DNA from: Psammoneis japonica
Lineage: Eukaryota
DNA: 64,000 bases
Direction: 5' to 3'
Assembly: GCA_008632985.1 (NCBI GenBank)
Contig: QPGO01000003.1
Span: forward strand, 806,001-870,000
Part shown: one piece after another, positions 19,401-64,000 of the stretch
How positions within the stretch are numbered: position 1 is the first letter of the stretch
Layout: each line of letters starts with the position of its first letter
The notes under the pieces: model-generated
The model's database searches: none
The model's input: only the letters and a program-made list of their open reading frames with translations
What the model was told of the DNA's origin: nothing
Made by a program: the position numbers and the translations under genes

Positions 19401-19873
19401 GCTACTCTGGAGGTTCTCTCTTGCTCTCCACGTACTACCCACCTCTTCGATCCTTTCTTTTCCCAGGATTCTTGTGTTGCAGTGTTATTACCGGTGCAGT
19501 CAGTTGCTGCCTGTCAGCGCTTCCAGTGTATGGGACAAGACGAGCTCACCAGTGAGTGCATGCGTTACCGGTAGTCTAATGTTGCAAAACGATGTGTCAC
19601 CGACCTTTACAGTAGGGCCCTACCTACCGGTACGAACATTCGATGCCGCCGGCATTTACAGCCGGTGTCTGTCTGTCTGTCTGAACTTCCGAGGGTTGAA
19701 GTTGAAGTTACCGGCAGGTTCGACGATCGCGACGATAATCGACTGTTGAACCCAGCGCGAACATCTTCTGACTGGATGTGCTCCCTTCCTTTTTCTCCTG
19801 TCCGGTCCAGATCGGATGGAGGCAGGGCACCTGGAGCCACTCCACCGCAGAGTGGAGGGAGAACCTTGGAGAG

Positions 19874-19901
19874 CAGAGAGAGAGAGAGAGAGAGAGAGAG
19901 A
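19874..19901. repeat. (AG)n microsatellite
   Basis: About 14 AG units. Confidence 0.95.
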
Positions 19902-22900
19902 GGTCCAATGAGAGACAGCAGTGGTCCCCCTCTGCATGAGAGAGGGGTTGTCGTCTGCCGTGGCCTGCTTTCACGTGAACAGGTGCCCACGCAGAAGCAG
20001 GCAGTGCGCGAGCCTCGAGCTGAAGCATTTTTTCTTCAACGGTGTGCTGGCCTGTGCATTCTTGATGGGTCATGGCGGCCCACACAGAAAGCACAAAAGC
20101 ACAAATCTGCATCATCAAAATCACAAGATTGCCCGGTCTCATGAGCACACAAGTTTTTGGTGCCTTTTCATTGTGTTTGGCACAGCTGTCTTGGATGACC
20201 TGCTGGATTTGTGCCTCACAACACAAGCCAAGTGAAGCACAGGTGGCTTGTTCCAGCCCCTTTTGTGGCAATTTTTGCTCTCATCAATTGTGGCACCATC
20301 TTCAGCGCTCATTGCGGTCTGCCACAAAAAAGATGCGGCAAAATGTGATGGCTCATGTGCAAAGTGTTGCAGCAGATTGTTTGCAAAGCAAAAAACTGTT
20401 CTTGTGTCATGGCATCACAAACACAAGCCACAAAGCATCTGGAGCACCAAAGGCTGGGGCAAAAGCAGAGCTGCAAGAGGCGCTGAGGAGGCACAAGAAA
20501 TGTGGTGTGGGCGCAGGGGCACAAAACAACAACGACGTTTGTTCTTCCCTTTCTCTGCAGGAAGGGGGTGCCATGGTTCAGGTTGGGAAGAAAATTTGCT
20601 GTGCAATGTTCTCACAATTGTCAAGGATGCCAGTCACAGTGTCCATCACAACAGTGCCATTCTGAGTGGTTTGATCAGTGCTCGCCTCTTGATGGGCTCC
20701 CCGGTCGGGCAAGAAGAGTGTCAGGTTCACATGTCTGAGTGTTGACATTGCCCTCAACCCAACTTTGGAAGTTCATCCATTGCAAACCAATCAGATCATG
20801 GAGGTTGTGCACGCTGTTGGCACTGACCCAACTCTGCCTTCATTCTGTCTTTTTGCAGATTTCCAGAGTGCACATGCGCTGAACCAGCCGTTGCCTGCAA
20901 GGTGGATGAACAAGCCAAGACAAACTTCTGCCCTTCAACGCTGTTTGCCAATGCACTTGATCATTCATCTGGCTGGCATTTTTCTTCTTTTGGTTGCTCA
21001 ATCAGATTGTCTGACCTGCCATGGAACCCACGACACACTCAGTGGTCCACGAAATCCACAATGCCCACCACGGCCGCAAAGACAGCTGGTCATCCATTGC
21101 AACAATCCCAAGCTGCTTCTGGCAGAACAACACATGTGGCTTTGTAGACACCTCAAGGCCAATCTAGTTCATTCCCCTTTCTGGGAACATTTTTGAACCA
21201 AAAGCACTGCCAAGCTGCAACCAGACTTGCACATCTTTTGTGGACTGCCTGTCAGAAACAACTTCGTGGCTTCTCTTCTTGGGAAGTTGCAGCCGGTTGA
21301 CAGCAATCACACAATCCTCTTTCATTCTTGCATCTGGCTTGAGACTCTTGGAAACAGGGTTGCAAACCAAGAAGAAGGGCCCCTGGATTTCCTTCTGCAA
21401 CAAGCTTGGTCCAATGTGCATTTTGCAGGCACCATCATGTGTGGCCAACACAACCAGGCCAATGACCTCAAGTCCTTCAATGCCTGGTGTGCCATTGAGA
21501 TGGTCCAGTGTGGTTTTTTTTTTGAACCAATGGCAATCAATCCTTTGAGAGTGGCATTGCTGCAATTTGATTTCATGGGAACTCCAATGCATGAAGCATG
21601 CTCATTGTGGGCCAACTGTGATTTCAGAGCTGGATGGTGAGTCAAACAACAGGAAACTCAGGACAGAGACAAACAAGAACTCACTGGCAGATGTGTTGCC
21701 ACAACAGCCTCTGGCACAAAGGCTCTGCTTCCCTTTGTGGGTGACCACCACATCTGCTTTGCTGGTGATTTTGTTTGATGGTTGTGATGCTGTGCAGAAC
21801 ACTTTTCTTTGCACTGCAGCAAGAGCATCACTGCAATGATCCTTGCATGGCAGTGCATCATTGAACAAGGGCACCTTCAGGTTTGTGATGGACTGGGACA
21901 AGAGGACCTTGGAGGACCACTCTCCCTCATTGTCTGGGATTGGATTGTCAATCACCACAGCAAACAGCACAAATGAGAGGACCTGTGCCACGAGGTCTGC
22001 CGCAGTGTGTGGGGTTTTGTTTGTCCATTCCCTCTGGCAGTGGAGGACAGATGCAAAGATGTTGCCACAGCACTCTGCCATGAGAGAGTTTGCAACCCCA
22101 AACTGCCAATGTTTGGGTTGTCTCAGCCACAATGCACACACTCATCACCATCACTCTTCTGCTCCGGTGCCAAGAAATCACTGATTGTTGGAGTCCTCAC
22201 ACTTCCACCAAGTTCATTTCTCTTTTTTGTTCCCCAAAACACCACCTGCGCAAATTCATTGGTGCAGCTTGAATGGCGCTGAACTTTCTGTTTACACAAA
22301 TTATGCAGAACTGTTGCATGTGGTGATGGAGACCCAATTCCCAGTCATCATGAGATTCCTGCCTGCTTCTTGCAAATGAACTCTCAACACTGGCAATGCT
22401 CTCATGTGTGTCCATGGAGTCCCGTTGTCATGCTGCATTTGTTGCACCCACTCCATTGCATTCATGAAAATTTCTTGAAGGCCCAAGCAGATGTTCATGA
22501 AACAGTTGACAGATTTGGGATCTAAGAACATGCCGGCTGCTTTCAGATTGTCCGCCATAATTTTTCCATCCAGAATGGGTGGACACCACATGCACTTTTT
22601 TTAATTGGAGATGGCGGCGCACCAGTGATGGGCACACCCTGGTCATCTGCTCCTTCAGTGGCTGCAGAGAAGAATCTTTGGCAGTTTCTTCTTCTGCCAC
22701 TGCTCTGGGGCTTTGAACAGCATGTGTGACAGATCATGAAACAAGAAGATTGTGTGGGCCTCTTCCAGGATCAGCACCTTGTTGTTCAATGCCAGTGCCT
22801 GTGGCACATCTTTCAAAGTCGGATTCGTTCTTTCAATGCCACTGGCTGGCTCTGACAACATCTTGGCTTTTCTCCTCTTCCTTGTCAACCACATTGACCA

Positions 22901-23499
22901 CAACAAACTCATCCTCACACTTGGTGGCTGGGTGGCTGGCAAGCGTCATCTTCCCTGCCACAATGGGGCTGCACACAAACATGGCAGAACCTTCCCCAGT
23001 GCTGGTCATGATGCTCTTGATCAACCCAACGGTTGCTTCCAATGAAATGAAGACATCCTCATTCCTTTTCTCTTGAAGAGAACCTGCTCTCAGCCATTTG
23101 AAAAGCATCCAGTTGAACAGAATCCATTGTCCAGCAAATGTCATTTGTCTGAAACCCATCATGGAACAGCAAAAAATTTGCCTGTTGCACTCTCTGAGGG
23201 GGTGGTGTCCACTGCATTTCAGCAACTCTCAGGAAGACATTGTTTGTTCATCATTGATGATCTTGTGTGAAAGGTTTCTCTTGCAACCTCTGACCACTGA
23301 TGAGACTCCCACCCAGCCATCTGGTTTCAAGACGCTTTTTGCGAATTAAGCCATTTCAAAAAACACCACACTTGCTTTCACCATGAGAGCAAAAATGGTG
23401 GCTGGAGTGCATTTGTTGCACTGTGTTTGGACAAGATTTTGACATCTGATCTCATGCATTGACACATTGGAACATCTGGAGTTGCTGTGTTCTGGTCAT

Positions 23500-26400
23500 T
23501 GCACCCATGTTTTTGTGATTGATGCACCATGGTCAACCACCACCCAGTGGGATTTTGCAGGTCTCATGGTCAACCACCACCCAGTGGGATTTTGCAGGTC
23601 TCATTGGAAAATTGCTGGGTTTTTCTTTGTTCTGATGGCAAGAATCAATTCTCCTGCATCATTGTCATGTGTTTTGATGTTTGTTGACAACGGGGCTAGA
23701 AGCAAGGGGGGCAATGGCCAAAACTGGCCAAGCCAGAAGTGCCTTGGCCAAGCCAGCATGGCACACCTTTTGGTTGCCAGCATGACAGTTGTGGCAGGTT
23801 CAAGGTGCAACAAGGGCTTGGGATCATCTCACATGCTGATTGTGATGGTCAAACTTCAAAACAGGTGTCTTTCTGCCTTTCTGAGCCAAGAACTTCTCAA
23901 AAAGCACTCATCTGCTTCAGGAGTCAAAAAACTGAGTGGGGACAACAAAAAGTTTTCTGTGTTCTTTCCTTTTCTGAGAGCCGTCTGGTGGGCAGTGGAG
24001 CCCCTGGCAAGAAACAGTTCAAAACAACAAGCCATCAAAGTTGTTGGGGCCTTGAAGCTTGCTCTGCTTTCACTTGCCACACTGTCACTTCAACATGCCT
24101 CCCAGCTGTGATTGTCAAGAAATCACTCTCCAAGTGGCACTTGAATCACTTCTCAACAATGAAAAAAATTGTGATGATGTCAAGCTGCACAGGGGGCTGA
24201 TGGCAAACAAGTTCATGTGACACAGGCTCACCTCACTGTGCAGAGCATGGTGTCTCATTTCATGCAAGGCCACTCAGTCTGTCACAAATGACTGAAAAAA
24301 TGCAAGGATTTTGAGGCCCACAATCTCACTCTAAAACAACTGGAAGACGGTCTGTCCCTGCAACACAAGGGTTGTTGGAAAGTGGCCAAAGAGGCTGGAA
24401 ACCACCAGAAGGACCTTTCTCAAGAAACAGGCCAAAGAACCAGCCAAGGCAAATGAGTCCACTGCAGAAAGACAACTCCATGATCTCCTGCACAAGGAAG
24501 AACAAAGGGAACAGAATTGCAGAGTCAACCAAATCTCTTGCAAGCCAATGAGATCAGCCCCAACCCAACTGCTGAAAAAAAGAGGTCAGGACAACAGGGA
24601 AATCACCACTGAGGAAGAAATTGAAGATGTTTTGCTCACCAAGTGCAAAAACAGACTGCATCAGATGGAGGAGACTTGCCTCATGCAGGAATCACTGGTC
24701 CACAATGTCCAGTTTCTGGGCATTGGTCTGGCAGCCAACACAATGCTGCAAGGATCACACCAACTCACAGAAGGGACCAACGCACATGTTCAAGAATGCT
24801 TCAAACAGCTGAGTCACCCAAGAGGACATGAGCCACCCTCCCTCCCTGGATCACTGCCAAAGAACACATCCACTCATGGAAGTGAGACAGAGAAGATCTG
24901 CACCAGACCATCAGGGCCACATCCAGCCCACTTCCAAGCTTCATGCAACGGCCCTCTTCTTGCAAAGATGGGTGCATCTGTGACAAATTTCCCATGCATC
25001 ACCAGATGCACACCAAAAAGATGGAGGCAAGGAATGGACCTTCTTGTTCCCAAGAAGGAAGGTTGCAAATGCATTGACTTGCTCTGCCTGATGCTCTGTT
25101 TTGAGGTGCACACCAACAACAACAGCAAGTGCCTGGGAAGGAAGATGATGCAACACACAGAACCTCAAAATTGGACAGCCAGAGAGCAATGCATCAGCAG
25201 GAAAGGTCACTTGGTGGAAGAACAAGCCCTCAACAAGCAACAGACATTTAATCTGACAAGAGTGGACCAAATCACATTGGTCAACACAGCTGTTGATCTA
25301 CAATCATGCTGCAACTTGGTGGCATGCTCATGTGCATGGCCATGAGGAGCAAAAGGTGCTCAAGAAGTCCCAATTGCACGCAAATTCATGACACTGCAGT
25401 GCACAGAACACACAGTCAAGACAATCTGTGGCAGATCAGATGATTCATTTGGTGGAGTGCCTCTGCGTAACATGGTTTGACCCAACACACTTCAACCCTG
25501 AAGACAAACCCCTGCAAGGCCTTGGACAAGGCAATGGCAATGCCCCACAAACACAGTCAGCAGTCAGCATGCCTGCACTGGAGATGATGAGAGTGGCGGG
25601 CCATGGTGCTGCATTCAAATCATCCATCAGCAGAGGGTCCCTGAGATCAGTTGGCTTTGCGTTTGTTGATGACAGCAACTTGATGCACACAGCAGCAGAC
25701 TCACATCAACCAAGCTGGGAAGTGGCAGCTGATGCCCAACAAGGCCTGGACCAGTTCATCAGTGGAACGTGCATCACAGGAGGGGACATCCAACCCAACA
25801 AATGCTGGTGGCATCTCATCAAATTTGAATGGAAACAAGGAAATTGGCAACACATGGAGGAAACCATTGACCCATCTGACAAAAATGATCCTCACATGTT
25901 TGGATCTCCCATCTAAATCCAAGCCAAGCAACGGAGACTCTTGGTGTCTGGTTGGCCCCAGATGGCAACTGCAACAAAGTGGTCAAAGCCCTGTAGAAAC
26001 AAGTGGAGGCATGGGCTGACTGAGTCCGCATTGGTCACCTCACTGAAGCAGATGCATGGCTGTCTCTCACACAAAGAATGCAGAAAGCTCTTGACCACCC
26101 ACCACTGGCACTCATGGTCAACTCCAAGGAGTGCAGACACGTTGAAGCTCCTGTGCTTCAACAGGGCATCCTGAGAGCTGGATTGTGCTGCTCATTTCCT
26201 TGGGCAGTTGTTCAAGGACCCAATCACTTCCAAGGATGGGGGTCCAGTCAATTGAATTCACCATGCACAAGAAACACATTGAAGCATTGGCAAAACATGG
26301 CAAGCAACAAACTGTCACTGGCAATCTCATCTGCACACTTCTTGAAAAACACAAACTGGAAATTGGTGTGAGCGGTTAATTCTTGGACAAGCCATGCAAG

Positions 26401-28800
26401 ACCTTTGGTGTGCTGGTGACTCCTTTGGGGATTGAACACCTGTGGAAATTCTTGTCAGAGCACAACATCCATGTTGAAGAGGACACCCCCAACCTGCGCA
26501 TGAGCTGCATTGATGACTCCTTTCTCATGGAACAATTTGCAGACGAAGGCTTTTGGAGCACAAGACCAATTGCTCTCAACCATTGCCGCACATGCCTGTG
26601 TGCAACAACCACAGCCAACACAAGCTCTGGGGATGGCAAAGGAATTCTGGAAGCAGCATGGAACAGCAAAGATGATCCCTCCTTTTGATTGCCCCTTCAC
26701 TGGCCAATCCAAGGTGGGCCATCAGCTGCAGATTGGAACCTGTGGAGGATGGTGCTAAGAGCAACATTCACGAGACCCTCCAACGTGTGTGCTCAACAAC
26801 TGCAGAGGCCCCTGGGTAACTGGACAACCAAAAATGCAGATGACTTGCACTGGACATGGTTCTTTTCTCCATCCAAAGACTGAGTTTACCACAAAGCAGC
26901 AGCGGACAACTGGAAAGTCTGCAAGATGGCCAGCAGAAGATGGGCCAGGGCGCCTCACAGAAGATTTGTTCTGACCAAGGCAGCAACTCCTGTGGGAGAC
27001 CCACAACAGACAAGAATCCATTGGAGAGGCAGAGACACCTGGGAATTGTGTCACACTGGATTGGCTCCAACACAAACATGCCCCCCTGAACCACAATTCG
27101 AGACCATTGTCAACAGAATTTGACATCATCCGGCAAGCTCACAGTGGTCCAATGAATGCATTGCCAACAACAACAACACCTGGCATGTCAACCAAGCTGT
27201 CAGAGCTGCCACTGCTGTTGCTGCAAGTGTTGGGTGCCTCAGCCTTCACCACACAAGGGCCTCAAGAATCCAATCATGTCACAGGCACCAATGTCATCCC
27301 AGGCCACCAGGGAGATGTCAAGTCATGTTGTGTGGAAACAGCAGGTCTCTGTGGGATTGTCTGCATGGTTGAAGACATCTGTGCCCACCACAACATCCAG
27401 AAAGAATCCATCAAAGTGGCTTGCAATGGGGACCAGGCACTCAACAAGACGTTTGACCTCCATGGGCACATTGCACCATGCTCTGACAACTTTGCCCTGC
27501 CAAGTGAATGCCGCAAAAACCAAGTTGGAAAAAAGCAAACTTGAGCGGAAATTCAGGTGGGTCAAAGGTCATCAAGATGGAAAGCCAAGACATGGGCTGG
27601 AGTGATGGGCAAGACTCAACATCCAAATGGACAACCTTGCAAAAGCCAAATGGCAACAGGTCACCCGGTTGAATCCAGGCTTGATGCGGCTCAACATTGA
27701 GGACAAAATGTGGCTGGTCCACACAGGCAAGTGCAAAATGTCCACCAAACTTCTGGAACAATTGCTCAATCAAACCTGTGGCACCAAATTGGTTCACTGC
27801 TGGGCACATGAAAAACAATGCTTCTCATGACAGGGTTTTTCAAAAAGTGGGCTGGGATGCAATTGACAAAGCAGCAGACCAACTGGGAATCGGACACTGA
27901 TGCTGGCCAGCAAAACATGTGACTGGCATCTGCGGAGCAGGCAAGTGGCTGCAATGGTGGAAGCCACAAGACCACTCCCACTGCCCATGCTGTGAAGAAG
28001 ACAACAAAGATGTCTGACACACCCTGATCTGCCCAGAAGCCATGGCCAAGTGGAACAAACTGCTGTGGAAACACGTCAAATGGATGGATGACAACAATGC
28101 AGTGTTCGGGTTCTCTGAAGCAACACAAGAAATCATCTTCAAGCATGGAGAGCTCATGGCAACTTCCCTGTTGCATGCAACAACCTTGCCAGTCCAATCC
28201 TCCAACAGGCCATTCAATCTCAGCACATCATTGGTTGGAACAGGCTCCTGGAAGGCTGTCTACATCATTGGTTGGAACAGGCTCCTGGAAGGCTGTCTGG
28301 TGAGAGAGTGGTCCCAACTGCAAGATGAGCACTTCCGTCAATGCTCCTCCTGCAAAACAGGTGCCAAATGGGTGCAACGCTGGATCAAACAGCCAATCAA
28401 CATCCCTCAAGGCATGTGGAAACACCAAAACAATGCGGCACATCTGAAACTCACAGAACAAGCCATGCAAGAACTTGACACAGCTTTGCATGACACCATT
28501 TCCAATGAGGACAAGAGTCCCTTCTGTCAGAACATGGTTGCCACTTTTGTGGACACCTCATCACTCTGTTGTCCAACCACCACACACACAAGAGGTCATG
28601 GCTGGCCAATGTTGTTGCAGCCCAAGAACGCCAATCCAGAAAACTGGGTGTCAGCATCCAAATGAAAGCAGAGTGAGCCATGCCACACAAGTGGGTCACA
28701 GCAAGAATGCCAACAAAAGAAGCCACCAACACAAAACGTGATGAGGAATCACCCCCTCATCCCTCTTGTCATGTGCACACCCATCTCAGGACAAGACAAG
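23500..28800 (+). mobile_element. Degenerate non-LTR retrotransposon (Ambal-like: RT + RNase H + C-terminal Zn motif); ends approximate
   Basis: PKRWRQG.DLL.PKK, EQC.SRKG, QALNK, DLQSCC, QGLGQGNG, FAFVDDS, ETAGLCG, WVKGHQD, CPCC..H..CP, IGWNRLLEG; many stops and frameshifts. Confidence 0.8.
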
Positions 28801-30569
28801 CACCTCCAATGATTCTGCCTCCAACTTGGAGCAGTTGCGCTAGATTCAAGTTTCTCTTGTTTTGTTTCAGCTGTGCCAGGGACCTGCTCCATCAAACATG
28901 GACAACCAATGGCTGCATGTGACAATGCAGCATCCTGTGCCAGGGCCCAACCATGGTGGGACAACTGACAGTGATGCTCCTTGACATCAAGTTGAGTTTG
29001 CCTTGTTCAAACATGCCCCTCTTTAGATGACAGTCTGGAGCACTTCTCTCCAAAGTCTTGCAGCCAGCCGGCTAAAAGCCTGCAGAGGGCGCTGGCACTG
29101 ACCAGCAATCATTGAGTTGATTGATTGATTGAGAATCCTTTGGTCCTTTTTGGAGTGGGCACCTTTGTGGTTGGCAAGCCTGCTGTGCATCACAACTCTG
29201 CCAGACAAACTTGGCCATGTTGCTCAAGTGCATGCCAAGCAATTGACCCATGATGGCTTCCTTGTTGATGGACTTAACAGGCTTGCTGCTCTTCCCAGAC
29301 ACATTGGTTGCATGGCATGTGGTCATGCAGGCACTCTCATGCAACACATTCCAAGGTGCTGCTGCATGGCTGCAGCTTGATGCAACATGTGATGATGCAC
29401 TGCCACCCCTTGACCCAAAATCTGCTTGAGTTTGATTGCTGCAATGCACACCAAACCCAAGCAACAGAAGAAAACAGCGAGGTGTTGTTTGGGGTGACAA
29501 AACACATGAACTCATGACACAATGAGTTGCACAAAATGCCACACCTGTTTTTGTCTTTTGTTCTTGGCACCTGTGTCATTGCCAAAAATGTTGCAAATGA
29601 TGGAATGTTGACAGTTTTTATTCAAATTCCAAGCCAATGTTGGCAATGCTGTTGGTTGTTGGGTTTGGACATCATTTGGTTGTGATCTCACCAAGTCTCA
29701 GGGTTTCTTGTCATTTCTTGCCTTTTCTCATTGCTTCTTGCTCTTTGCTTCTCGTCACTTCTCATCATTTCTCATGCTTCTCATGATTTCTCATGTTTTC
29801 ATCATCTTGAGCAATCTCCCTGTCCAGTGGCAAAGCAGTGCTGTCAACAACTTTGGCCACTCAAGAGGTTTGCTGCTGGAAGCTCTGTGGTTGGTGGAGA
29901 AGAAATGGCTCAAGAAGCAACAGCAGGCATGGGGCACTGGGAGCCTTGTGCTGAAATGGTGACAAGATGCAGTGTTGATTTGTGTTGCTCTTTTGTGAGT
30001 GTCAGCACTGCTGCAGCTCCAGCCAAGAGAGAGATTTCTTCTCATTTTCTCACAATCTCTCATGATTTCTCACAACTTCTTGTCATTTCTTGTCCTTCTT
30101 GTGAGCTTGCATCACTTCTTGTCACTTCTCATCATTTCTTGCCATTTCTCATTGTGTGTCTGTTGAGAAATGTTGCTTGGATCTCTGCCATTTGACAACC
30201 TTTGGTTTTGCAAAATCACTTTGAAAAACAGGCAGCCTTGTTGGCAGTTGCTCCAGCTGTTGGTGCACAAACATGGGTGGCATTCATGTGTGCAATTGTG
30301 CTCTGCAAGAGCCTGAGTCACCAGCTTTGTTTGTGCCTTCATTGGCAACAACCACACCACCAGGAGTCAACACATGACACATGATGTCATTTGACAATGT
30401 TTGAGCAATGCACCACAACCACTGCACACAGATTGTTGAGGTTTTTCCATGTGGGATGTCCCAGGGTCTCTTTCCACCATGCATTTTTGTGGGTTTTGTG
30501 CAAAGTGCTGCTGGGTGGTGCTTTGGGTGCAAGGCCAAAGCTTTGTGTGGGAAACCATGCAGCCATTTC

Positions 30570-30813
30570 TGACAGGATTTGAACAAGATTTTAGTTTGTC
30601 ACACACAATTGTGTGTGCTCTTGGTTCCGCGCACGTCGCACGATGTAGTTTGCTTTCAAGCCACATGGCTCACAAGAACAATGACAGCAGTGCCATGTCA
30701 TGACACCAGTCTTTCGGCTCCTGCAGTGGTCTCTGAATGGAGACTTATCTGCCATTTAGACAGCAGCAAGGAGTTGTTGTTTACTTCCACCCAGTCATCT
30801 TCATTTTCTGTCA
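30570..30813 (+). repeat. 5' LTR
   Basis: 244 bp, about 90% identical to 37153-37397. Confidence 0.95.
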
Positions 30814-51806: not shown

Positions 51807-53059
51807 CCAAACTAGGAATGCGGGGCAAACATTCATCAAAAAATGAGACTCTAATCTTTGGCTTGCATGCATGGGAATGCCGGTACAAGCCGCGCATTCC
51901 AGTCGTGGGGTGACGCAAGCGAGGAATTGCCTGCTGCCGCGCTTACGTCATCGCCTCATGTGTTGCACTGAAATGTTTTGCATTTCCTTCCATGTCCTTG
52001 CCCTTTTGTTGCACTGGCCAATGTTGATTGTGCCCCAAGCAACATTTTCATGAGGCAGAGCAACAAAAAGGGCAGGCGCCGTTTTGTCAGAGCTGCACAA
52101 TTTCTGTTTTTGACTTGACAATGACGTGTTTGCACGCCCCTGCTGTCCACCCCCCCCTTCTTGTTTCCCTTTGTGTGCTTTCTGTGTTGATTGTGTGCAG
52201 GGTCAATTGGATGCTGCTGATGTCCTCCATCCACAGGACTCCCCCAAATGGGTGTGGCTTCATTCGTGGTGCACATTTTTTGATGCTCATGTGGCTCCCA
52301 CGTGAGCATGCACCAGATCAGCAAATCAACAACCCAGCATGTTCTCACCTGTTTGCGCTGCAGCTCTGTTGACTCTGCCCCACTGTTTGGCACCTTTTGC
52401 CACAACCCACCATGGCAAATTCTCTTGCTCACCAGCACCTTTGCTGCCATGATGGCTCTGCAACAACAAAGTCTGGTTGCCCTTGAAAGAAGGACCCAAG
52501 CTGCAAATGGTCTGTGAACAATGGGAGTCTGCACCTGTCTCAGTTTCTTCTTCTGGTCAAGGCAGGGTTGGAGAAGCTGTTGCTTCCAAGTGCAGCTCCT
52601 CCCTTCATCCATCTGATTTGGACAGCTGGACAGCTGTGGTCTTCTTGGAGGCTTTGTGCTTCTCCCAGAATTGCCTCCTCTGTGTCTCCAGCTGCCAAGG
52701 AGAATTGTGAGATCTGGTGCAAGAAGCTGTGGTGTTTTCTTGCCATGATTGGTGTGATTGTGATTCCATGGTGGTGCTGCCATTGGCACACCCACCAGCT
52801 GGCTGCAGATGCCCCACTGTTGCACAGCCCTCCCTTCAGCATTTTGTTGTTCATCATTGCAAGGCCTTCAACCAGCCATTGAAGTTTTCCTTTGTCAACT
52901 CTGTTCTTTCTGACCCTGTCATTGATGTCAACAGAAATCACATCAGATCTGAAGGCTCCTGCATCAACAACACCAAGGGCTTCACCAACATTCATGCCTC
53001 ATTGGCTGACCTTGGGGAAAGCTTGGGACAAATGGCAACTGCAGTGAAATTGCAGATGC

Positions 53060-54600
53060 ACATTTAATGCTGAATGGTGATCTCAGCCAGCTGATGCACA
53101 CATGCAGCAATCAGCTCAATCAATGCAGTCATGGATTGATTTTGTGTGAGTGCAAGAGAGTGCTGTCCGAGATCCAATCTCCTGCACCAATGATCAAGAA
53201 TCAAGTGCACACACCATGTTGCAAGAAAAGAGGGCGCCAAATGGCTGGAGAGTCTGTTTTTGCTGATTGTTGGGCCCGTGTTGATTGTGTTGCTTGTTTG
53301 CATTGCAATGAGTTGATCTGGCTGAACAGAGCAATGGCTGGGGAGTTGACCTTTCCTCCATGACTTCCCAGCCCACCTGCTTGGAAATCCCCTGGTGGGT
53401 GTGCATCAATTTTGCTGCTTCATCACTTCAATCACTGGCTCCCAGCTCCTCAACAAGCACCTGGTTGATGTGGAGCTGCACAACAGTTGGGTTGTGCAGC
53501 ACTGCTCTCAACGACAACTCCTGATGACACAGAGAACATCTCTTTGCACTCTGAGACATGACCAAGGGAGTGTTGGGGCATGTGTTTGTGTGACCACGAT
53601 GACAGTGGCAGCATCTTTCAGGTTTGTTTTGCAAATGAATGAAAACCAGGCAATGGAAGAAAAAGGGCTGCACAAGGTTGTTTTTTTGCCCCCTCTGGAT
53701 GTGGGCTTTCAGCATTTGCTGGTGGGCACTTTTTCATCGCCCCAATCTAAGTTGGGCAGACCAATTGTTTTGCAACACTGGATTGCTTGTGTGGGGTTTA
53801 AAAATGGCAGCATGGCAGAAGATGTTGCTCAGAATGTTGCCAGAAATGAGTGCCAGCGATGCAAGCCAAGCTTTGCCTGCAGTGTGTTGATGGTCACTGC
53901 ACTGGTCATTTGCTTTGGCCTGACCCTGCCCATGGTTCCCAAGTTCAATTTTTCAAATTGGCCAAAGCCACACTCTGCTCTGCTGGCCTTTTGAGCTCTT
54001 TGCCCCACTCTTTGTCACCCTGTTTGGAGCTGTTTGACCAGCCACAACTTGGGAGCTGATCCCTGCCGGGTGTCTTGCAAGTCATGTTGACCACTGTGGC
54101 ACATGCAAAAAGGAACACAAATTGGCATGCCAGAGATGGTTGCGCCATGGCTGAGTTGAGGACAGGCTCCCATGCAAAGGTGCTGCAGCTGGTTCCCCAA
54201 GTCAATTTTTGTAATTGTTGCTGGAGCCTGTTGCCAGCTGTCAACTGCTGGGATCCACTTTTGCTGCCACAGGCCTCACCACACCTCAAGGAAGATCTGT
54301 CAGTGTTGGCACTGTGAATGAGGCCACACGCAGCAGAGAATTCCTTCCCACCAGCAATGTTTTGCAAACTGTCAGACCAGAAGGCCATGACTGCAGCTCT
54401 GGGACACCCACTTTTGTGTGAGTTGCAGTTGATGCAGCAAAGAACTTTGGCACAATTGGCTGCAAAGATGTCACCTCCATTCCTCTGCACAGAAATCTGG
54501 CATGAATCAGACAACATCCAATGCAATGAGAGGCGCCACACAACAAAAGACAGTTGCAGTTTGATGTCAACAACAAAACGCCCTCCATGATTTTTTAAGA
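53060..54600 (-). pseudogene. Eroded host-gene-like sequence (possibly glycosyltransferase-like)
   Basis: HKSGCPR...TDLP..GE.CG shared with fragments at about 42.7, 57.9 and 60.1 kb. Confidence 0.45.
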
Positions 54601-55999
54601 ATTGGTTTTCTTTTGCAATGCTGCTCTGTTTGTCAACCTTGCTTTCAAAAGCTCCAGTCTACAAGCCACACACAATGTCACTCCTTGGCGCAGCTGTGGC
54701 AGTTGTCACAGCCCTTGCTCTGTGCAAGCATCAAGAAGGAGGCCTGTTGCTCATTGGGACACACCTCCAGATTGCACACGCTGTTCACCAAATGGCTTTG
54801 GTTGTTTGCTTGGAGACTCAATGCTGATGAAGCAACCGTTGCAGTGCAACTCTCAAGTGCTGTCAGACTGTCACAAAAATGACTCAGTTTTGTCTGCAGC
54901 CATTGCTGTGGTGGGCACCAAATGAAGGAAACAAAGGTGTGGGGCAGCCCCCCACACACTGACCTCAATGACAGGGGGCATGCCTGCCTGCCAGTCACCT
55001 TGAGGGGAAAAGTTGGCACACTGTGTCTGCACTTCTTGTGGCAGTCTGCACCTCATGTTGGTGGCACACCAAATCCCCTCCCATGCTGTGGCCATGACAA
55101 GAAGACTTGCCACAATTTTTGCATGATGCAGCAGCAAAGGACCCCCACCAGCAAGGCAACCATGCTGAGCCCATGACTGACTTTACATTGGCAGGAGCTC
55201 AAGACACAACCTTGTGCTGTGCTGCAGAGAGGCATCATCATCTGAGCACAAAATGATGTCCTGCCAACAGCAATGCCAAAAAGATCAGTTGGCACCACTG
55301 CATGGCTGCATTTAGAGGCCCAAAAGCACACAAACTTGCCCCCTCAGCATGGGAGCACCTGTGCAATCAGGACTTAAACAAAAAACAGTCAAAGAGAGGT
55401 TGTGTTTTGTGTTGGTGGCAGAGGTGTGCTTTGCCAAAAAGGAACTTTGGTGCCCAGCAGGAGGTGGCTGCTGCAAGGGGGGCAGAGTGCACATTTCCAC
55501 TCCCGCGCAAGACTCAGATGACATCCAACACAAAAAGAGGCATGGCAAGAAAGATTGCAGCTTGGTGTTGACAAAATCTCCCTGGGGCAACTCAAAGGTG
55601 CTTGGGGGGCGACCTCTCTCACACACCATTGCACATGCGTGCAGCTTTGAACAATCGTCTGAGCATGCGACAACTTTGGCAACTGTGAACATGGAATGAT
55701 GTGTGTTGTGCTGGTCTTTAGAACTTCACAAACATTTTGCACCAAAAATGTTCTTTTGCAATGAACACTTGCTGGCTCTGAGATGACATTCTGTGGCAGC
55801 AGCAGAGCCACGATGCAATGCTGACTTGACAGTCCCCTCCACTTGGCACACCATGGTTCTTGTCAGATTTGGCAGGCTGCCAGTGGGTCTCCTCCATCCA
55901 TTCCTTGTCAGAGAAAAGATTTTGTTGGCACAGCAGACTGGCAGTCTGAGCCTGTGGGATGGACACATTTGCAACATGACACAGCTTTGTGCATGCACT

Positions 56000-56388
56000 G
56001 ACGCGTTCCAGCCCTAGGTGGGACTCCGTGTGACATTGGGCCCGTAGAATTCTACGTGCGAGGTCCGTAGTACGAGAATTTAATTAATGGATATATTTAT
56101 CTTCAACATCAAATAAACGGCCAAGTTTGTGGTACAATTATGCCTCTTACCACTCGACGTTTTTGCAAATGCACCTGCCCTACGCGATTCTTAAGACATT
56201 ATAGAATCGCGCTGTAACAAAAAATGTCAAAAGTTTTTGGACGGATCGCTCAATAAGTGTACCGTAAAATGACACAAAATATAAAAAAATCACGTAGAAT
56301 TCTACGTGCGCGACATACGACGAGATTCAAAAAACTATCGATGTCACAGTTCAGTAGTACGAGGTCCCACCTAGACCTGGAACGCGTC
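56000..56388. mobile_element. Young, un-eroded 389-bp MITE
   Basis: 25-bp TIRs gacgcgttccagccctaggtgggac / gtcccacctagacctggaacgcgtc, 4-bp TSD CACT, subterminal repeats cgtagaattctacgtgcg. Confidence 0.9.
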
Positions 56389-56627
56389 CACTGCTGCAGG
56401 TGCGATGCCACACCTCAAATCTCACTTTTCTTTTTTTCTTGTCTTGAAGCAACGAAATGTCCAACAATGATGTCCGATGTCCTCAAAGCGAAGCAGTCAT
56501 TTTGCTGCGGCCTGCTCATGACCTTGCCGGCACTGCTGCCCATGTCACATGCTGTGCGATGAGCACCGCATTTCACTGCCGTCACTTTTGACAGACAATG
56601 CACTCCATGGTTTGATGGGTGTGAAAG

Positions 56628-57860
56628 ATGCCGGATGATGAGGAAACGCTGGTGCACGAAGCCATCTCTTTAACTTGTCGGCACCATTCTGGTCTTGTGC
56701 TTGAGCATCTTTGACTTTGAACCAGATCTGCAAAGACTTTGTCCAAGAACAGCAAAGAAAGACAATGACAGACTCATCCACAAGATGCAATGGCACGCCA
56801 TGCCAGATGTGTTGGCAAAAGAGATGCGATCGCCTCCTCTCCAAATCATGCAGCAACACCAAAAATGGCATGGAGTTGAGGCTTTAGAAGGAAACCCTTC
56901 CATGGAGATGTGCAAATTTGCTGTTGCTGCATGCTGGTGTCCAGACCGAGCTGGCAATGTGCTCCACAGTCTCTTCAACTCCATTGCGTGGTCCACCATC
57001 ACAAATCGAACTCTTTTGCTTGACTGGGACACAGGAAACCCCAGTGTCAATGACGAATCTTGGTGCAACGATTGAGTTCTTCGACGACAATCATGGACTC
57101 CAATGTGGGGTGAGTGGAAAGAGAAATTGGGCTTGGGCGATCCAGTCTCTGTTGGCATGAATGCACCTGGACGAAGTGCGATGAAGACAAAGAGCACCAA
57201 GTCATCCCATTTCCCATGATCCTGGAGGTTCTGCATGAAAAGCGAATCTGTCAAAGTGGATGGGGTCATCATCCCATGGCTGTTCCAGAACACCAAAGCT
57301 GCGTGCAGGCAATGCCAAAAATCAATCGGGAGATTGCCTCTGGCATGCACTCGGAAGGAGTGGAATTTCTCTTTGGAATGTTTTTCCGTCAATTCTTTGT
57401 GTTGTTCCCCGAGAAAGCACTGTCCACACACGAGGATTCGTTTTTTGTTCATCCTGATTATGACATGTTCACGGTGGCTCTACACAGCCACCACGTTTCT
57501 TCTGTCGATGATGGCAGATGCATTGCTGACAAAAACGTTGTTTGAAGAAGATTCTGCCTGGTGCAAATGAGAGCTCAACCAAGACATGTTGGGCACACAT
57601 TCCATCGGACAGTCCATTGACAATTGAAAAGCTGCACCACTGGTTGGAAGAAAACCGCAACTGCAAAGCCATTTCTCTGCAGCATGACACTGAAACTCCA
57701 GCAATTTCAGATGAACACGGACCGAATGCTGGAGAGGGTTTCTCAGCAGAGCTGGAAATGGGCTTGCACGCAAGAACGGCCGTGATTGGCTCCCCCAATC
57801 GATCTTCCTTTAGACTGTTGCTAGAGCTTGTTGCCTGCCATCAAAGACCAGAGTCCTTGA
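56628..57860 (+). pseudogene. Eroded type II membrane protein gene (fucosyltransferase-like diatom family)
   Basis: KFAVAACWCPDRAGNVLHSLFNSIAWSTITNRTLL, EGVEFLFGMFF, EHGPNAGEGFSAELE; stops and frameshifts. Confidence 0.55.
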
Positions 57861-60280: not shown

Positions 60281-60348
60281 CTACAATCAACTGCAACTCG
60301 TCTCATTAGTCTTATTCTCTAATCTTTTCTGTAATCGCCACAATGTGG

Positions 60349-62065: not shown

Positions 62066-62359
62066 AAGCCCGAGCTACTCCTTTGTCTATGATGTGGCGT
62101 CAATCATTAGTCGTCATCTAAAATCAATAATATGCTTATCAAGACGCTTCATCGGGAACGAACCATGTTGTACAGGCTTCTACCAATCCTTTTCGCCCAA
62201 CTTGATGAAAAGAAAATAGTTCAGCACTAGCTAGCCGTCACGCACTGCAAGTCATACTGTAATATCATTTTGTCTCTAATGTTGTTGCGTCTAGCTTGTG
62301 TGCTTCTCTCGTCTATCAACGCCTTCATCCACAATACTGTTTGGAGCTCGTTGCCAACA

Positions 62360-63400
62360 AACATATAGCTGCTGTTGTTCAAGGGCTTCTTTTGAGCGAC
62401 AATAAACCCCCAAACGATGTTCTTCTCTCCCAGATCGCGCCAGGTGCACAAGCCTGCTTTCATTTTTTCTTGAAAGGGTTTGGTAATGCCAAAGCCATCG
62501 CCTTTGGCTTCTAGGACTTTGCATACCGTCCCAAGTGAGCCGACACATTGGTGGAAGCATTGGGCAAGGCTTCAAAGTTGGTAAATCCAGCTGCCTCCAT
62601 GGCTGCTTTGTAGTTGGAAATGGTTCCCATTTTGGATGGGCCAATGCAATCATAAATGGGTTGCATCTCCTTTGGGTCAACCTCTTCCTGCTGCATGATG
62701 TCAGAGAAGATCATAAATCCACCAGGTTTCACGGCACGAGCCACTTCCTTCATGGCTTGTTCTTGGCCTTTGGGTCCGACATGCAACAAGGCATCCATGC
62801 CAATGACGAGATCACAACTCGCATTGGGCACGCTCTTCACTTCGAGATGGGATTCCTCATGAATGGCAATGTCCTTGTCACAACCCATTTCTGCATTCAT
62901 CGACATGCCTTTTCACACATTTTGTTGGAAATGTCACAGCCAATCGTGCCAGATTGAAGGACACCGGCTTGCCACAAACGACACAGCAATCCACCACAGA
63001 GCCACATCCCACATCCAATGTCTTGACTTTGGCATTGTCAGGAAATTTGAATTTTGTCAGCTTGACAAATTCTTCCTCTTGGTGGATTTGAGCCTGAAAG
63101 ATTTGTTCCTGCAAGTCCTTCTGTTTGTCAGCATCGGTCAACAAATCACACCTGAAAAAGTTCGCGGTTGTTGCAACGACAACTCCAAATGTCAACAACA
63201 ACTGCTGAGCACACCAACAATGTCAGCAACTCATTGCCTTCCGAACATGCGTGTTGTCCCCCCAGATCCTGGTGCAAAACAATTGAGTGTCTTCCTTGTC
63301 ACAATGTTCTTTGGCCAAAGATGTGCCTTTGGTCCCTTGATCTTTCAACGACATGTTGGATGGATGCCGTTTGTCAGGGACACCAGCAGTTGAAGAGAGA
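62360..63400 (-). pseudogene. SAM methyltransferase pseudogene (sarcosine/dimethylglycine N-methyltransferase or diatom TpMMT-like)
   Basis: LDVGCG, MDALLHVGP, VKPGGFMIFSDIMQ, MQPIYD, NIVWGFIVAQK; frameshifts; intron 63152-63237. Confidence 0.75.
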
Positions 63401-64000
63401 ATCGAAGAGAAGATGTGTTGAAGAGCAAGTCTTAAAAAAATGCATTGAAGAGAAAGACCAGCTGTCGGACGGCACTTTGACAATTTCTCATTTTGTGGTT
63501 GTGTGGAATGCTTTGCCTTGTTGAGCAAGAAACCTTCTTCCAGTGTGCCTCAGACTGTTTCTGCCACCTCACCACTTTCTCTTCTGCCTTCCTTGATTGG
63601 ATTTTGGCTTCATTGCTGCCTCCTTTTCCTTCTCTGTTCCCTTCCGGTTTCCCTCACTTCCTTCTGATCTCTGGCTGGCAGCTCTCAGTTGTTTGGTTGT
63701 GTGGGTGCAAGCATGAGGAAAATGTCACTGACATGCTCAAAATACAAAACATGCAAACACCCCCAACTCATGTTGTGCTCGAGTGCCGCAAACATGCAAG
63801 GGGCCCAAAACACTCTGCAGAACATGAAGAATCCAAAAAGAACCCTTGCATGATGGTGGAGCATGCACAACATGAAACAGGGGTGTCTTGAAAACAAATG
63901 TTTGATGCATCATTGACGTTTCGTGTTAGAACAATGTGCACATTTTATGGAAATTTGCAAAAATCAGGCTCGACCTTCAATTTTCGAATCGCCAAAAAGA
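62660..64000. other. TpA-depleted hypermutated block D (runs off the window)
   Basis: TA nearly absent after about 62715. Confidence 0.85.

Follow-up and report, generated by a model that had tools for sequence, protein, structure and literature searches.

Probable targeted TpA hypermutation of transposon-derived nuclear DNA in a diatom-like alga

Integrated NCLDV and virophage DNA in the chlorarachniophyte Bigelowiella natans (Rhizaria) undergoes hypermutation at TpA dinucleotides (Mettrop et al., bioRxiv 10.64898/2026.01.13.699255). According to the preprint text, 230 of the 231 mutations that arose de novo in two viral inserts of mutation-accumulation lines were A>G or T>C, all 230 of them at TpA, and they appeared in a subset of lines only (11 of 15 for the larger insert). 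The same text reports 124 genomic clusters that are poor in TpA and rich in CpA and TpG, with TE-type domains (reverse transcriptase, endonuclease-RT) enriched among the TA-poor sequences. In fungi, RIP (Neurospora) and RIP-like TCG hypermutation (Pucciniomycotina) are reported to inactivate transposons by dense transitions, destroying reading frames and leaving a footprint in dinucleotide composition; RIP requires duplicated sequence, and its C>T changes, mostly at CpA, create TpA and lower GC content (PMC7296669, PMC3318451). CpG methylation of diatom repeats is described as extending over blocks of as much as 30 kb (PMC5124317), and diatom transposons as bearing H3K9me2/3 and H3K27me3 (PMC4504042).

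Here, we describe a stretch of 64,000 nucleotides of nuclear DNA (the window) from a diatom-like stramenopile alga, in which TA has been almost erased from transposon DNA. We consider it likely that TpA was converted in place to TpG or CpA by a targeted process, together with CpG decay, in silenced transposon DNA, and probably through the deamination of adenine. The preliminary description of the window knew of no account of such a process; it is no longer undescribed, since the same spectrum was described once before, in 2026, in the unrelated B. natans.

Composition of the TA-poor blocks

The observed/expected ratio (o/e) of TA falls below 0.15 in 30 of the 64 1-kb windows, every one of them at or beyond 20 kb. 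Segmentation in 200-bp windows, refined on the sequence itself, delimited TA-poor stretches at 19737-30569, 31901-~38080, 41901-49700, 51901-55999, 56389-57800 and 62701-64000, which make four blocks of about 33 kb under the grouping of the preliminary description. The blocks outside the Copia element, and a transposon lying between two of them, are as follows.

19737..30569, no strand: block 1, old transposon DNA, CpG-poor; TA 25 versus 394 expected, CG 94 versus 587
37398..38080, no strand: older TA-free DNA, resuming beyond the right end of the Copia insertion; until ~38085 its sole TAs stand in TTAG, TTAA and CTAA contexts
41901..49700, no strand: block 3, CpG-poor; TA 29 versus 306 expected
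51901..55999, no strand: block 4; TA 11 versus 141 expected
56000..56388, no strand: MITE of 389 bp with terminal inverted repeats, starting GACGCGTTCCAG, and a CACT target-site duplication
56389..57800, no strand: block 5; TA 4 versus 51 expected, CpG loss only moderate (45 versus 77)
62701..64000, no strand: block 6, extending beyond the window end; TA 5 versus 53 expected

Across all blocks (31,624 bases) 101 TAs were observed versus 1,124 expected at the flanking-gene rate (TA o/e 0.553), so that about 91% are missing and the Poisson P underflows to 0; the near-absence of TA from sharply bounded blocks beside TA-normal genes is thereby confirmed, and an earlier count by eye of about 25 TAs in 20.0-30.5 kb agrees with the 25 of block 1. 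The flanks have a TA o/e of 0.49-0.58 and a CG o/e of 0.80-0.94. The left edge of block 1 is sharp to tens of bases, the final TAs lying at 19709 and 19736 and the next one at 21145, and the block edge at the nested MITE is exact. The spectrum is specific to TA plus CG: CG, whose loss the preliminary description under-stated, is also depleted (587 observed versus 1,762 expected). The combined loss of TA and CG (2,198) matches the combined gain of TG and CA (2,262). TG and CA increase equally (o/e 1.5-1.9), the other twelve dinucleotides (AA, AG, AT, GA and so on) stay near 1, essentially unaltered, and GC content is not shifted (0.486 versus 0.483).

Transposons in the blocks and the direction of change

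The blocks are made up of transposon DNA, comprising the relic of a LINE, a Copia element that lies nested in the older DNA, and repeats without a family name, one of which is common to blocks 3 and 4 (42222-43287 and 53201-54629). Of the earlier statement that the blocks coincide with transposons and gene relics, the first part holds, now with two named elements; no host-gene relic was found in the blocks, and a search of blocks 3-6 for coding content recognised none.

24368..28503, + strand: relic of a LINE-type non-LTR retrotransposon (endonuclease and RVT_1), frameshifted, within block 1
30570..37397, + strand: Copia LTR retrotransposon, nested in older TA-free DNA
30570-30813 and 37153-37397, + strand: Copia LTRs with TG...CA ends, ~90% identity
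30565-30569 and 37398-37402: Copia target-site duplication, ATTTC and ATTTT
35123..36718, + strand: dead Copia reverse-transcriptase frame (RVT_2); Tyr 0.8%, Cys 6.2%, His 5.5%

The LINE relic carries the reverse-transcriptase motif FVDD at 25662. Relatives of its ORF at 25392-25913 number 1,115 at E<=1e-3; RVT_1 was present in all four long relatives scanned and Exo_endo_phos also in two, and colinearity in tblastn adds to the evidence for the relic. At the 12 Tyr columns conserved among its relatives the relic reads Cys or His in nine (four Cys, five His) and Tyr in one, and 16 of 34 Arg columns read Cys, His, Gln, Trp or stop. In the Copia element, 312 of 366 conserved codons are unaltered, while its 20 Tyr columns read Cys in 11, His in 3, Phe in 3, Trp in 1 and Tyr in 2, so that Cys or His stands in 14; a second, independent alignment gave Cys or His at 11 of 17. 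Nine of 28 Copia Arg columns read Cys, His, Trp, Gln or stop. The replacement of Tyr by Cys and His, first noticed in the preliminary description, thus recurs in two unrelated transposon families, and as read from these conserved columns (Tyr to Cys/His, Arg to Cys/His/Trp/Gln/stop) the change is polarised, from TpA and CpG to TpG or CpA.

Among the matches listed, all 120 protein relatives of the Copia element keep a Tyr content of 2.3-5.7% versus 0.8% here, and none of 23 related Copia loci of other sources is TA-free (TA o/e 0.32-0.86); judged by these relatives, TA loss is not a feature of the Copia lineage. Four of the 23 have a CpG o/e of 0.12-0.25 yet a TA o/e of 0.41-0.69. In methylated diatom repeats, the decay of 5-methylcytosine explains CG>TG/CA, one half of the footprint, and also why it is limited to repeat blocks of 10-30 kb with unmethylated gene islands in between (PMC5124317, PMC2806351), but it cannot account for the TA half.

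That no mutator was at work, the DNA having been TA-poor from its origin or purged by selection (for example to escape a TA-cutting nuclease or TA-targeting transposons), has in our view next to no chance of being correct. TA is indeed under-represented in most genomes, as in the flanks (0.55), but selection on a working element would forbid the ruin of conserved Tyr codons in catalytic domains. The depletion moreover spans non-coding DNA and both strands, the relatives are TA-normal, and the losses of TA and CG match the gains of TG and CA.

Change in place, on both strands

Sister copies were compared for sites with TG in one copy and CA in the other. The control was a duplicated gene pair of normal TA content.

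38465..39509, + strand: control gene, one of a duplicated pair (partner at 58479-59544) sharing 83% identity across 1,041 aligned bases

Double discordances of this kind, for which either TA or an ancestral CG can be the source, number 5 per 244 aligned bases in the LTR pair of the Copia element (two of the five falling in a CpG cluster), 16 per 414 in the two copies of the block 3/4 repeat, and 2 per 1,041 in the gene pair (Fisher p 0.0036 and 1.3e-7, respectively, versus the gene pair). At a single LTR site the change was caught midway, one LTR still reading TA and its partner CA. On the evidence of these paired copies, the change occurred in situ, after insertion, on DNA and on both strands.

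These observations bear on RNA-level A-to-I hyperediting, in which an ADAR-like enzyme would edit double-stranded transposon RNA and reverse transcription would fix the result, so that copies arrive already mutated. ADAR hyperediting shares with the present case A>G change, a 5' U preference and repeats as targets, through repeat-derived double-stranded RNA; it differs in working on RNA, in altering a single strand of each molecule and in preceding integration, and none of these three features is found here. ADARs favour a 3' G, whereas the 3' preference here is Y. Both named elements are retroelements, the preprint text also notes the 5' U preference (bioRxiv 10.64898/2026.01.13.699255), and the Tyr>Cys to Tyr>His ratio of 11 to 3 in Copia hints at a sense-strand bias. 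Against hyperediting, however, the LINE has no such bias (4 to 5), TG and CA gain equally on each strand, LTRs that were identical at integration now differ by the discordances and the TA/CA site, and the TA-free state continues beyond the Copia ends into adjoining DNA; we accordingly give the hypothesis very little credence. The TA loss of this Copia could nonetheless stem in part from an already mutated source copy; its LTRs (TA o/e 0.29 and 0.17) are less depleted than its interior (TA o/e 0.08, CG o/e 0.62) and many contigs of data set X1 lie on this element.

The paired copies also weigh on an artefact of the kind that the preliminary description had allowed for, in which modified bases at TA are miscalled as G or C and the true genome retains TA. 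Six 1-bp gaps between the window and X1 contigs at 17.9-18.9 kb, as in an unpolished long-read assembly, would suit such an error. X1 contigs (31-mer) of 3,681 and 1,375 bases nevertheless match block 1 at 19910-23557 and 23575-24949, repeating 5.0 kb of TA-free sequence with 0 differences, although X1, whose library type is unrecorded, is possibly the window's own source sample, so that the agreement may not be one of independent chemistry. Strand-dependent misreading would leave every site as a mixture of TG and CA, so that such contigs would be broken. At a given site the repeat copies and the LTRs each carry either TG or CA, fixed within a copy and differing between copies. The TA-rich MITE was read normally within a block, and newly arisen heritable mutations in the Illumina data of B. 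natans show this spectrum as well (bioRxiv 10.64898/2026.01.13.699255). An artefact is hence a very improbable explanation.

Sequence context, candidate chemistry and target

Residual TAs are unevenly distributed among contexts, with 24 TTAA, no ATAT and 1 GTAC in the blocks versus 47, 87 and 93 in equal-sized flanks. A four-parameter model in which the two strands are multiplied reproduces all ten context classes (likelihood ratio 113, 3 df) and ranks per-strand loss as T-A-T > T-A-C > T-A-G > T-A-A, a rank that presumes a starting tetranucleotide composition of the blocks equal to that of the flanking genes. The loss of TA is thus nearly complete, confined to sharp-edged domains and context-dependent.

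TA is apparently lost faster than CpG. CG o/e is at least 0.5 in 7 of the 30 TA-poor 1-kb windows and TA o/e is at least 0.3 in none of the 24 CpG-poor ones, and TA loss is near complete in the Copia interior and block 5, where only about one-third of CpG is lost. The CpG loss, strongest at TCG in the old blocks, is most simply ordinary 5-methylcytosine decay within the same domains. Two transition processes acted on this DNA after insertion, both ending in TG or CA: TpA became TpG or CpA by an A:T-to-G:C transition on either strand of the palindromic TA, and CpG became TpG or CpA. These findings support the earlier claim of a targeted TpA conversion on both strands that is separate from CpG decay and runs in the reverse direction to fungal RIP, since TpA is destroyed here and GC is steady.

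Pol eta produces A>G at WA motifs in antibody hypermutation, and the preliminary description had listed a Pol eta-like polymerase coupled to methylated chromatin; drawn there, or to T:G mismatch repair, it would insert G opposite T at TA. The heavy CpG decay implies numerous T:G repair events, but WA covers AA, which shows no depletion (o/e 1.08-1.34 in blocks versus 1.13-1.17 in flanks); nor does TA loss scale with CpG repair events, being near complete where CpG loss is about one-third. Such repair is very unlikely to be the cause.

The likeliest chemistry would be deamination of adenine by a TadA/ADAT-type enzyme, a candidate already named in the preliminary description; the product, hypoxanthine, pairs like G. 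This family offers a parallel in the U-A-C step of its natural substrate: bacterial TadA prefers U33-A34-C35-G36 (PMC10586758), and its U(-1)-A-C(+1) matches T-A-Y. Eukaryotic ADAT substrates, in the account cited, show no T-A-Y preference, and amphioxus ADAT2, which deaminates both C (at TCG, where CpG loss in the old blocks also peaks) and A in DNA, prefers GAA for adenine (PMC10354150); both points count against this chemistry. An A>G and a T>C change leave the same signature here, because TA is its own complement. Moreover, we know of no natural ADAT action on chromatin-embedded double-stranded DNA.

Thymine may instead have been attacked, with a TET/JBP-type dioxygenase or another T-modifying enzyme marking the T of TpA in silent chromatin and 5-hydroxymethyl- or 5-formyl-uracil, or a derivative, giving T>C by mispairing with G or faulty repair. 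Every result is as compatible with T>C at R-T-A as with A>G at T-A-Y. The mispairing of 5-formyluracil with G and the reported preference of dinoflagellate 5-hydroxymethyluracil for TpA and TpC point the same way. Nothing in the window bears on base modification, however, adenine deamination is what the one publication on the signature puts forward (bioRxiv 10.64898/2026.01.13.699255), and the -1 U and +1 C preference of TadA provides a ready parallel for T-A-Y (PMC10586758); we regard attack on thymine as unlikely, and prefer adenine deamination.

As to the target, the evidence supports a conversion directed at domains of transposon-derived DNA that adjoin genes of normal composition. The proposal that the process is repeat-confined and RIP-like is not supported: the duplicated gene pair, about 1 kb long, keeps normal TA, and the published case includes a single-copy viral insert, so that homology is unlikely as the trigger and silenced or foreign status fits better. 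The target would then be silenced or foreign chromatin (CpG-methylated, H3K9/H3K27-methylated) rather than sequence duplication. The MITE is unmutated despite its TA-free surroundings (TA o/e 0.98, CG o/e 1.58), and the process is therefore not continuously active on all DNA within a block; episodic activity would account for an untouched young MITE.

The process would be of the same kind as that in the B. natans lines, which, by the preprint text, is likewise exclusively TpA>TpG/CpA on both strands, restricted to foreign DNA with sharp regional limits and normal neighbouring genes, and seemingly episodic (bioRxiv 10.64898/2026.01.13.699255). The two cases differ in that the targets here are retrotransposons and repeats with about 91% TA loss, known from standing sequence, whereas the B. 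natans NCLDV insert still has a TA o/e of 0.45; strong CpG loss accompanies TA loss here, and a flanking-base rank is derived, whereas the preprint text mentions neither CpG nor a context analysis, which its supplementary tables may give. The window thus represents a second lineage with TA-erasing hypermutation, in which transposons have been driven to saturation, and adds as new details the context rank, the coupling with CpG decay and an unmutated MITE within a mutated block.

Dinucleotide composition and limits of the TA-poor blocks

A 1-kb scan of the window reveals an abrupt compositional switch at about 19.7 kb, where the observed/expected ratio (o/e) of TA falls from 0.4-0.9 to 0.00-0.12, that of CG falls to 0.05-0.75, and the mean o/e of TG and CA rises from about 1.2 to 1.6-1.96. 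TA o/e is below 0.15 in 30 of the 64 1-kb windows. Fine segmentation, with the edges set by eye, resolves six TA-poor stretches, 31,624 bases in sum:

19737-30569, block 1
31901-~38080, TA-poor stretch overlapping the Copia element described below
41901-49700, block 3
51901-55999, block 4
56389-57800, block 5
62701-64000, block 6

Merging of neighbors reduces these six stretches to the four sharply bounded blocks of the preliminary description, and the near-absence of TA that it had estimated by eye holds on counting, with 101 TA dinucleotides observed and 1,124 expected at the flank o/e of 0.553. The CpG half of the pattern had been understated, as CG is present 587 times and expected 1,762 times. 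The TA-normal parts of the window carry eukaryotic genes encoding a U-box protein, a CBS-pair protein, V-ATPase subunit H, a GT64 glycosyltransferase, and a plastid fibrillin, in which TA o/e is 0.49-0.58. Simple repeats lie near two of the edges, a (GA)n microsatellite at 19873-19905, just within the left edge of block 1, and a short GACCGTT tandem at 38185-38215, just beyond the point where the 19.7-38.1 kb domain ends on the right.

When all sixteen dinucleotides are tabulated, only TA and CG decrease and only TG and CA increase. The increase in TG and CA is equal on the given strand, with an o/e of 1.5-1.9 for both in every block, and the summed TG and CA excess (2,262) agrees within 3% with the summed TA and CG deficit (2,198). 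The conversions of TA and CG offset each other, so that GC content is constant (0.486 in block 1 and 0.483 in the flank). AA, AT, AG, and GA are close to their flank values. A Pol eta-like process, one of the candidates of the preliminary description, acts at WA, that is, at both TA and AA; AA is not reduced in the blocks (o/e 1.08-1.34) and AG is not increased, and this candidate is disfavored.

One public sample, comprising three runs from one study, carries the sequence of the window. Two contigs of run X1, of 3,681 and 1,375 bases, align to 19910-23557 and 23575-24949 with no differences. Strand-dependent misreading of a modified base would yield a mixture of TG and CA at former TA sites, making such contigs impossible. 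The base-calling artefact that had been considered earlier is improbable on this evidence from X1, a run of unrecorded library type that is possibly derived from the sample behind the assembly. Among the 40 contig-versus-window differences listed of 354, 32 lie within blocks; most of these are CA or TG against CG or TA, and two pairs set TG against CA. Contigs of a second run, X2, cover only 16001-19466, with none over 19.5-36 kb, a blank that is not evidence of silence. At 17889-19212, contigs of both runs depart from the window by several single-base insertions (G, G, G, T, A, A) as well as by a small number of substitutions, which may be indel errors of unpolished long reads or allelic differences of a diploid. 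An X2 contig also skips 98 bases at 17408-17507 that end in CT..AC (GT..AG on the minus strand) and have the look of a spliced intron, suggesting that X2, labelled 'DNA?', may be an RNA library.

Genes, transposable elements, and repeats in the window

The features on which the comparisons below depend are the following:

24368-28503 (+), relic of a LINE-type (non-LTR) retrotransposon in block 1, frameshifted, with relatives colinear across four frame changes
30570-37397 (+), Copia LTR retrotransposon with an RVT_2 frame; LTRs of 245 bases, TG...CA, about 90% identical; 5-base target duplication ATTTC/ATTTT
38465-39509 and 58479-59544, duplicated gene without a Pfam family; frames of 272 and 313 aa, 83% DNA identity over 1,041 bases, both copies in TA-normal gene islands
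56000-56388, MITE of 389 bp, bounded by terminal inverted repeats, carrying a pair of CGTAGAATTCTACGTGCG motifs internally and flanked by a CACT target-site duplication

For the CBS protein, 141 relatives were found, of which none exceeds about 52% identity, and all eight organism-named entries among the 120 listed are diatoms. These matches place the host among diatoms or their close relatives and set it apart from Bigelowiella natans, for which protein identity of about 100% would be expected. An AlkB-like 2OG-Fe(II) oxygenase frame (PF13532), possibly a nucleic-acid repair dioxygenase, lies at 2-904. Scans of the window for tRNA genes and Rfam families found nothing.

The Copia element is enclosed by older TA-free DNA, which extends on the right to about 38080. 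For one frame of the LINE relic, 1,115 relatives score at E<=1e-3; of the long relatives scanned, four of four contain RVT_1 and two also contain an apurinic-type endonuclease. An FVDD motif occurs in the translated block frames. In a self-comparison of the window the LINE relic is found only once, and a repeat, about 80% identical, is common to blocks 3 and 4; apart from this repeat, blocks 3-6 have no recognizable coding content. A tblastn search of the window with 270 Copia and LINE relatives gave matches only at 24.0-28.5 kb and 34.0-37.2 kb, and among 72 distinct frames from the TA-poor blocks RVT_2 alone exceeded its curated Pfam cut-off. The earlier statement that the blocks coincide with transposable elements and gene relics is therefore correct for the elements (LINE relic, Copia, and repeats); no host-gene relic was found in the blocks.

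Other frames of the blocks gave less. Pfam matches to C7_FIM2_N, SapB_1, and DUF4193 were rejected as chance-level, the ORF at 56673-57479 (-) has no relatives, the Atlas match of 51959-52867 (-) scored below 0.8, and 24335-25342 matched unnamed Atlas clusters, one with 18% RVT_1, which is only a lead. The TA-free DNA at 19700-38100 and 41900-57800 contains long, overlapping open frames on both strands, such as one of 392 aa at 33255-34430 on the minus strand, opposite the Copia frames. Long frames arise here because TAA and TAG stops are absent; most are spurious, and automatic callers could report them as genes.

The Copia family seems to be extremely abundant. Summed X1 contig depth, from 7,048 contigs in all, is 5,900-44,600 over the element and 34-106 elsewhere in the window, a figure that is not a copy number; it reaches 13,000-45,000 over the LTR and 5' region (30008-32008) and 16,000-30,000 over the reverse transcriptase (34677-36000).

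Polarity of change and its action on integrated DNA

The direction of change can be read from codons conserved among relatives of the two elements. For the Copia, 120 relatives of 53-66% identity define 366 conserved codons, of which 312 are unchanged in the window. Twenty conserved Tyr columns read 11 Cys, 3 His, 3 Phe, 1 Trp, and 2 Tyr, and 9 of 28 conserved Arg columns show the replacements characteristic of CpG decay (4 Cys, 2 His, 1 Trp, 1 Gln, and 1 stop). A separate multiple alignment with 60 relatives agrees. The Copia frame contains 0.8% Tyr, 6.2% Cys, and 5.5% His, compared with medians of 4.5%, 1.1%, and 3.7% in the relatives, and none of the 120 relatives listed has less than 2.3% Tyr. 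Among 12 Tyr columns of the LINE relic, Cys stands in 4, His in 5, and Tyr is kept in 1; Arg has given way to Cys, His, Gln, Trp, or stop in 16 of 34 columns. The low-Tyr LINE relatives are short fragments in which Cys and His are not raised. First-position G>A changes in the LINE (Asp>Asn, Glu>Lys, Gly>Arg/Ser, Ala>Thr) were preceded by C in 8 of 9 cases examined, indicating CpG>CpA across the codon boundary. These replacements indicate that the ancestral sequences had TA and CG, and that the copies here are dead. Conserved Tyr residues had been described as reading Cys or His, and they do so in 14 of 20 Copia and 9 of 12 LINE columns; the ratio of Tyr>Cys to Tyr>His, 15 to 8 in both elements together, is not counted as a finding of strand bias.

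Copies that independently convert an ancestral TA (or CG) should carry TG opposite CA, adjacent mismatches that are otherwise rare. The two Copia LTRs show 5 such discordances over 244 aligned bases, and the repeat copies shared by blocks 3 and 4 show 16 over 414, compared with 2 over 1,041 in the TA-normal gene pair (Fisher p = 0.0036 for the LTRs and 1.3e-7 for the repeat copies). Two of the five LTR discordances, in a CpG cluster, probably derive from CG. TA/CG/TG/CA interchanges account for 17 of the 24 mismatched LTR positions, and at one site the 5' LTR has TA and the 3' LTR has CA. The LTRs of one element are identical at integration. Thus, the discordances mean that the change followed integration and struck the DNA itself, on one strand or the other, and they argue against editing of an RNA intermediate. 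ADAR-like editing of the sense strand, fixed by retrotransposition, is further disfavored by the equality of TG and CA, by a different 3' base preference, and by the extension of the TA-free state past the ends of the Copia.

Part of the depletion of the Copia interior (TA o/e 0.08, compared with 0.17-0.29 in the LTRs) could have been inherited. The 5' part following the LTR, at 30814-31900, has 16 TA and an o/e of 0.25 compared with 0.08 in the remaining interior; possible causes are recombination that gave this part a different age, its composition of sequence contexts, or a gradient of the process.

Related Copia loci elsewhere retain TA. A metagenome scan found 4, with TA o/e of 0.41-0.73, and a prokaryote genome collection yielded 19 on contigs filed as bacterial MAGs, with TA o/e of 0.32-0.86. 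The preliminary description had allowed that relatives might be equally TA-free; none of these 23 loci is (o/e 0.32-0.86), 19 of them having been found with a pattern that contains Tyr and is biased against mutated copies. A similarly Tyr-containing and biased pattern retrieved no Copia relatives from viral contigs. From these comparisons, TA loss is not a property of the Copia lineage. Four of the 23 loci have CpG o/e of 0.12-0.25 yet retain TA at 0.41-0.69, showing that CpG decay by itself does not entail TA loss. The 19 loci on MAG contigs (labelled Sphingobacteriaceae, Weeksellaceae, Algoriphagus, Aeromonas, and others) are Copia elements of diatom type that share 48-61% identity with the reverse transcriptase in the window (43% for one short fragment), and most likely reflect eukaryotic contamination of the bins.

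Sequence context, order of events, and relation to known processes

The 98 surviving TAs in the blocks are non-random in context (chi-square p = 1e-22). Compared with flanks of equal size, the blocks retain 24 TTAA (47 in flanks), 24 TTAG/CTAA (99), 7 CTAG (65), 1 GTAC (93), 2 GTAT/ATAC (178), and 0 ATAT (87). A model in which the strands act independently and survival is set by the base 3' of A alone, assuming that the blocks started with flank composition, accounts for every one of the ten classes (likelihood ratio 113, 3 df), with fitted survival per strand of 0.68 for TAA, 0.38 for TAG, 0.17 for TAC, and 0.065 for TAT.

TA loss correlates with CpG loss (Spearman 0.79 over 64 windows). CG o/e of at least 0.5 is retained in 7 of 30 TA-poor windows (Copia and blocks 5-6) and TA of at least 0.3 in none of 24 CpG-poor windows, an asymmetry indicating that TA is lost faster than CpG. 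A rough estimate from the LTRs is that, by a background divergence of 7 in 244, about 85% of interior TA and about one third of CG had gone. In the old blocks, CpG survival per strand depends on the 5' base (T 0.29, A 0.44, C 0.54, G 0.67), with TCGA the most depleted CpG class (0.094); the younger blocks show no 5'-base pattern (p = 0.22). The TCG-biased loss in the old blocks is a lead only.

The MITE has TA o/e of 0.98 and CG o/e of 1.58 in TA-free surroundings. The process is therefore not permanently active on everything in a block, and judged from the MITE it is either episodic or sequence-directed; the element gives indirect support to episodic action and offers a natural means of timing the mutation process.

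Together, these results define a TA-specific, both-strand, post-integration, domain-limited transition process, accompanied by CpG decay. The preliminary description knew of no account of such a process; the spectrum has since been found in a preprint on Bigelowiella natans by Mettrop et al. (bioRxiv 10.64898/2026.01.13.699255). In that work, 231 of 302 nuclear point mutations in mutation-accumulation lines fell within integrated giant-virus and virophage regions, at rates about 1,000 times background, and 230 of these 231 were A>G or T>C, every one at TpA. The giant-virus region was mutated in 11 of 15 lines and the virophage region in 6 of 15, the genome contains 124 clusters of TpA-poor, CpA- and TpG-rich windows, and an ADAT2-like adenine deaminase is the suggested agent. 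The window resembles this case in that A:T>G:C change is limited to TpA (here CG also falls), TpG and CpA outcomes are both present on either strand, and foreign or selfish DNA (here LINE, Copia, and repeats) is hit and adjoining host genes are spared. CpG, flanking context, and diatoms are unmentioned in the text of the preprint, and the window adds all three. TpA-specific hypermutation in diatoms looks unreported in the literature searched, which excludes most subscription journals, and a term search of two diatom TE papers returned nothing on it.

The term 'RIP-like, repeat-confined' is not supported. Fungal RIP converts C to T at CpA or TCG, creating TpA and lowering GC, whereas here TpA is destroyed and GC is constant. 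RIP is triggered by duplication; the duplicated gene pair is TA-normal with 2 discordances, a weak test since its 83% identity may be below the homology threshold. The sparing of this pair, together with the single-copy state of the B. natans target, makes it more likely that the process is directed by a chromatin or small-RNA signal than by homology. The CG>TG/CA component resembles 5-methylcytosine decay in presumably methylated DNA. By their likeness to known domains, the blocks may be silenced, CpG-methylated or H3K9me2/3-H3K27me3 chromatin: in Cyclotella, repeat domains as long as 30 kb are CpG-methylated and alternate with unmethylated gene islands (PMC5124317), and in Phaeodactylum, Copia elements bear H3K9me2/3 and H3K27me3 marks (PMC4504042).

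Adenine deamination is the leading idea for the chemistry. Bacterial TadA recognizes U(-1)-A-C(+1)-G (PMC10586758), close to the T-A-Y rule of the window. Amphioxus ADAT2 acts on DNA at C in TCG and at A in GAA (PMC10354150), in part a parallel to the footprint and in part a mismatch. Attack on T instead of A is equally compatible with the same data, since TA is palindromic. Under adenine deamination, a single TadA/ADAT2-like DNA deaminase with a 5'-T rule, recruited to silenced chromatin, might convert both A in T-A(Y) and C/5mC in T-C-G. A single defense would then account for the loss of TA and for some of the 'CpG decay', and it would be old, SAR-wide (stramenopiles and Rhizaria), and a natural DNA adenine editor. 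Low CpG survival after T in the old blocks and the action of amphioxus ADAT2 on both TCG and A suggest this reading, which we nonetheless regard as improbable.

The finding is real and well characterized, and represents a second algal lineage, with transposons as targets, for a process reported once, in 2026. Prior support consisted of one preprint on one species; the context rule, the link to CpG decay, and the MITE exception are added here, and provide testable particulars (T-A-Y > T-A-G > T-A-A, TA loss ahead of CpG decay, and escape of a young MITE). We know of no enzyme for an A:T-directed mutation process that acts at one dinucleotide and is confined to selfish DNA. Possibly the agent is a DNA adenine deaminase of natural origin; if so, it would have direct relevance to base editing. 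For annotation, mutated elements shed their recognizable domains (one Pfam match above cut-off in 72 block frames), and spurious long frames in TA-free DNA may enter gene-caller output. A saturated footprint in a diatom-like alga indicates that the process is not peculiar to Bigelowiella or to viral inserts, and that the transposon landscape in a second major lineage of algae is shaped by it as well.
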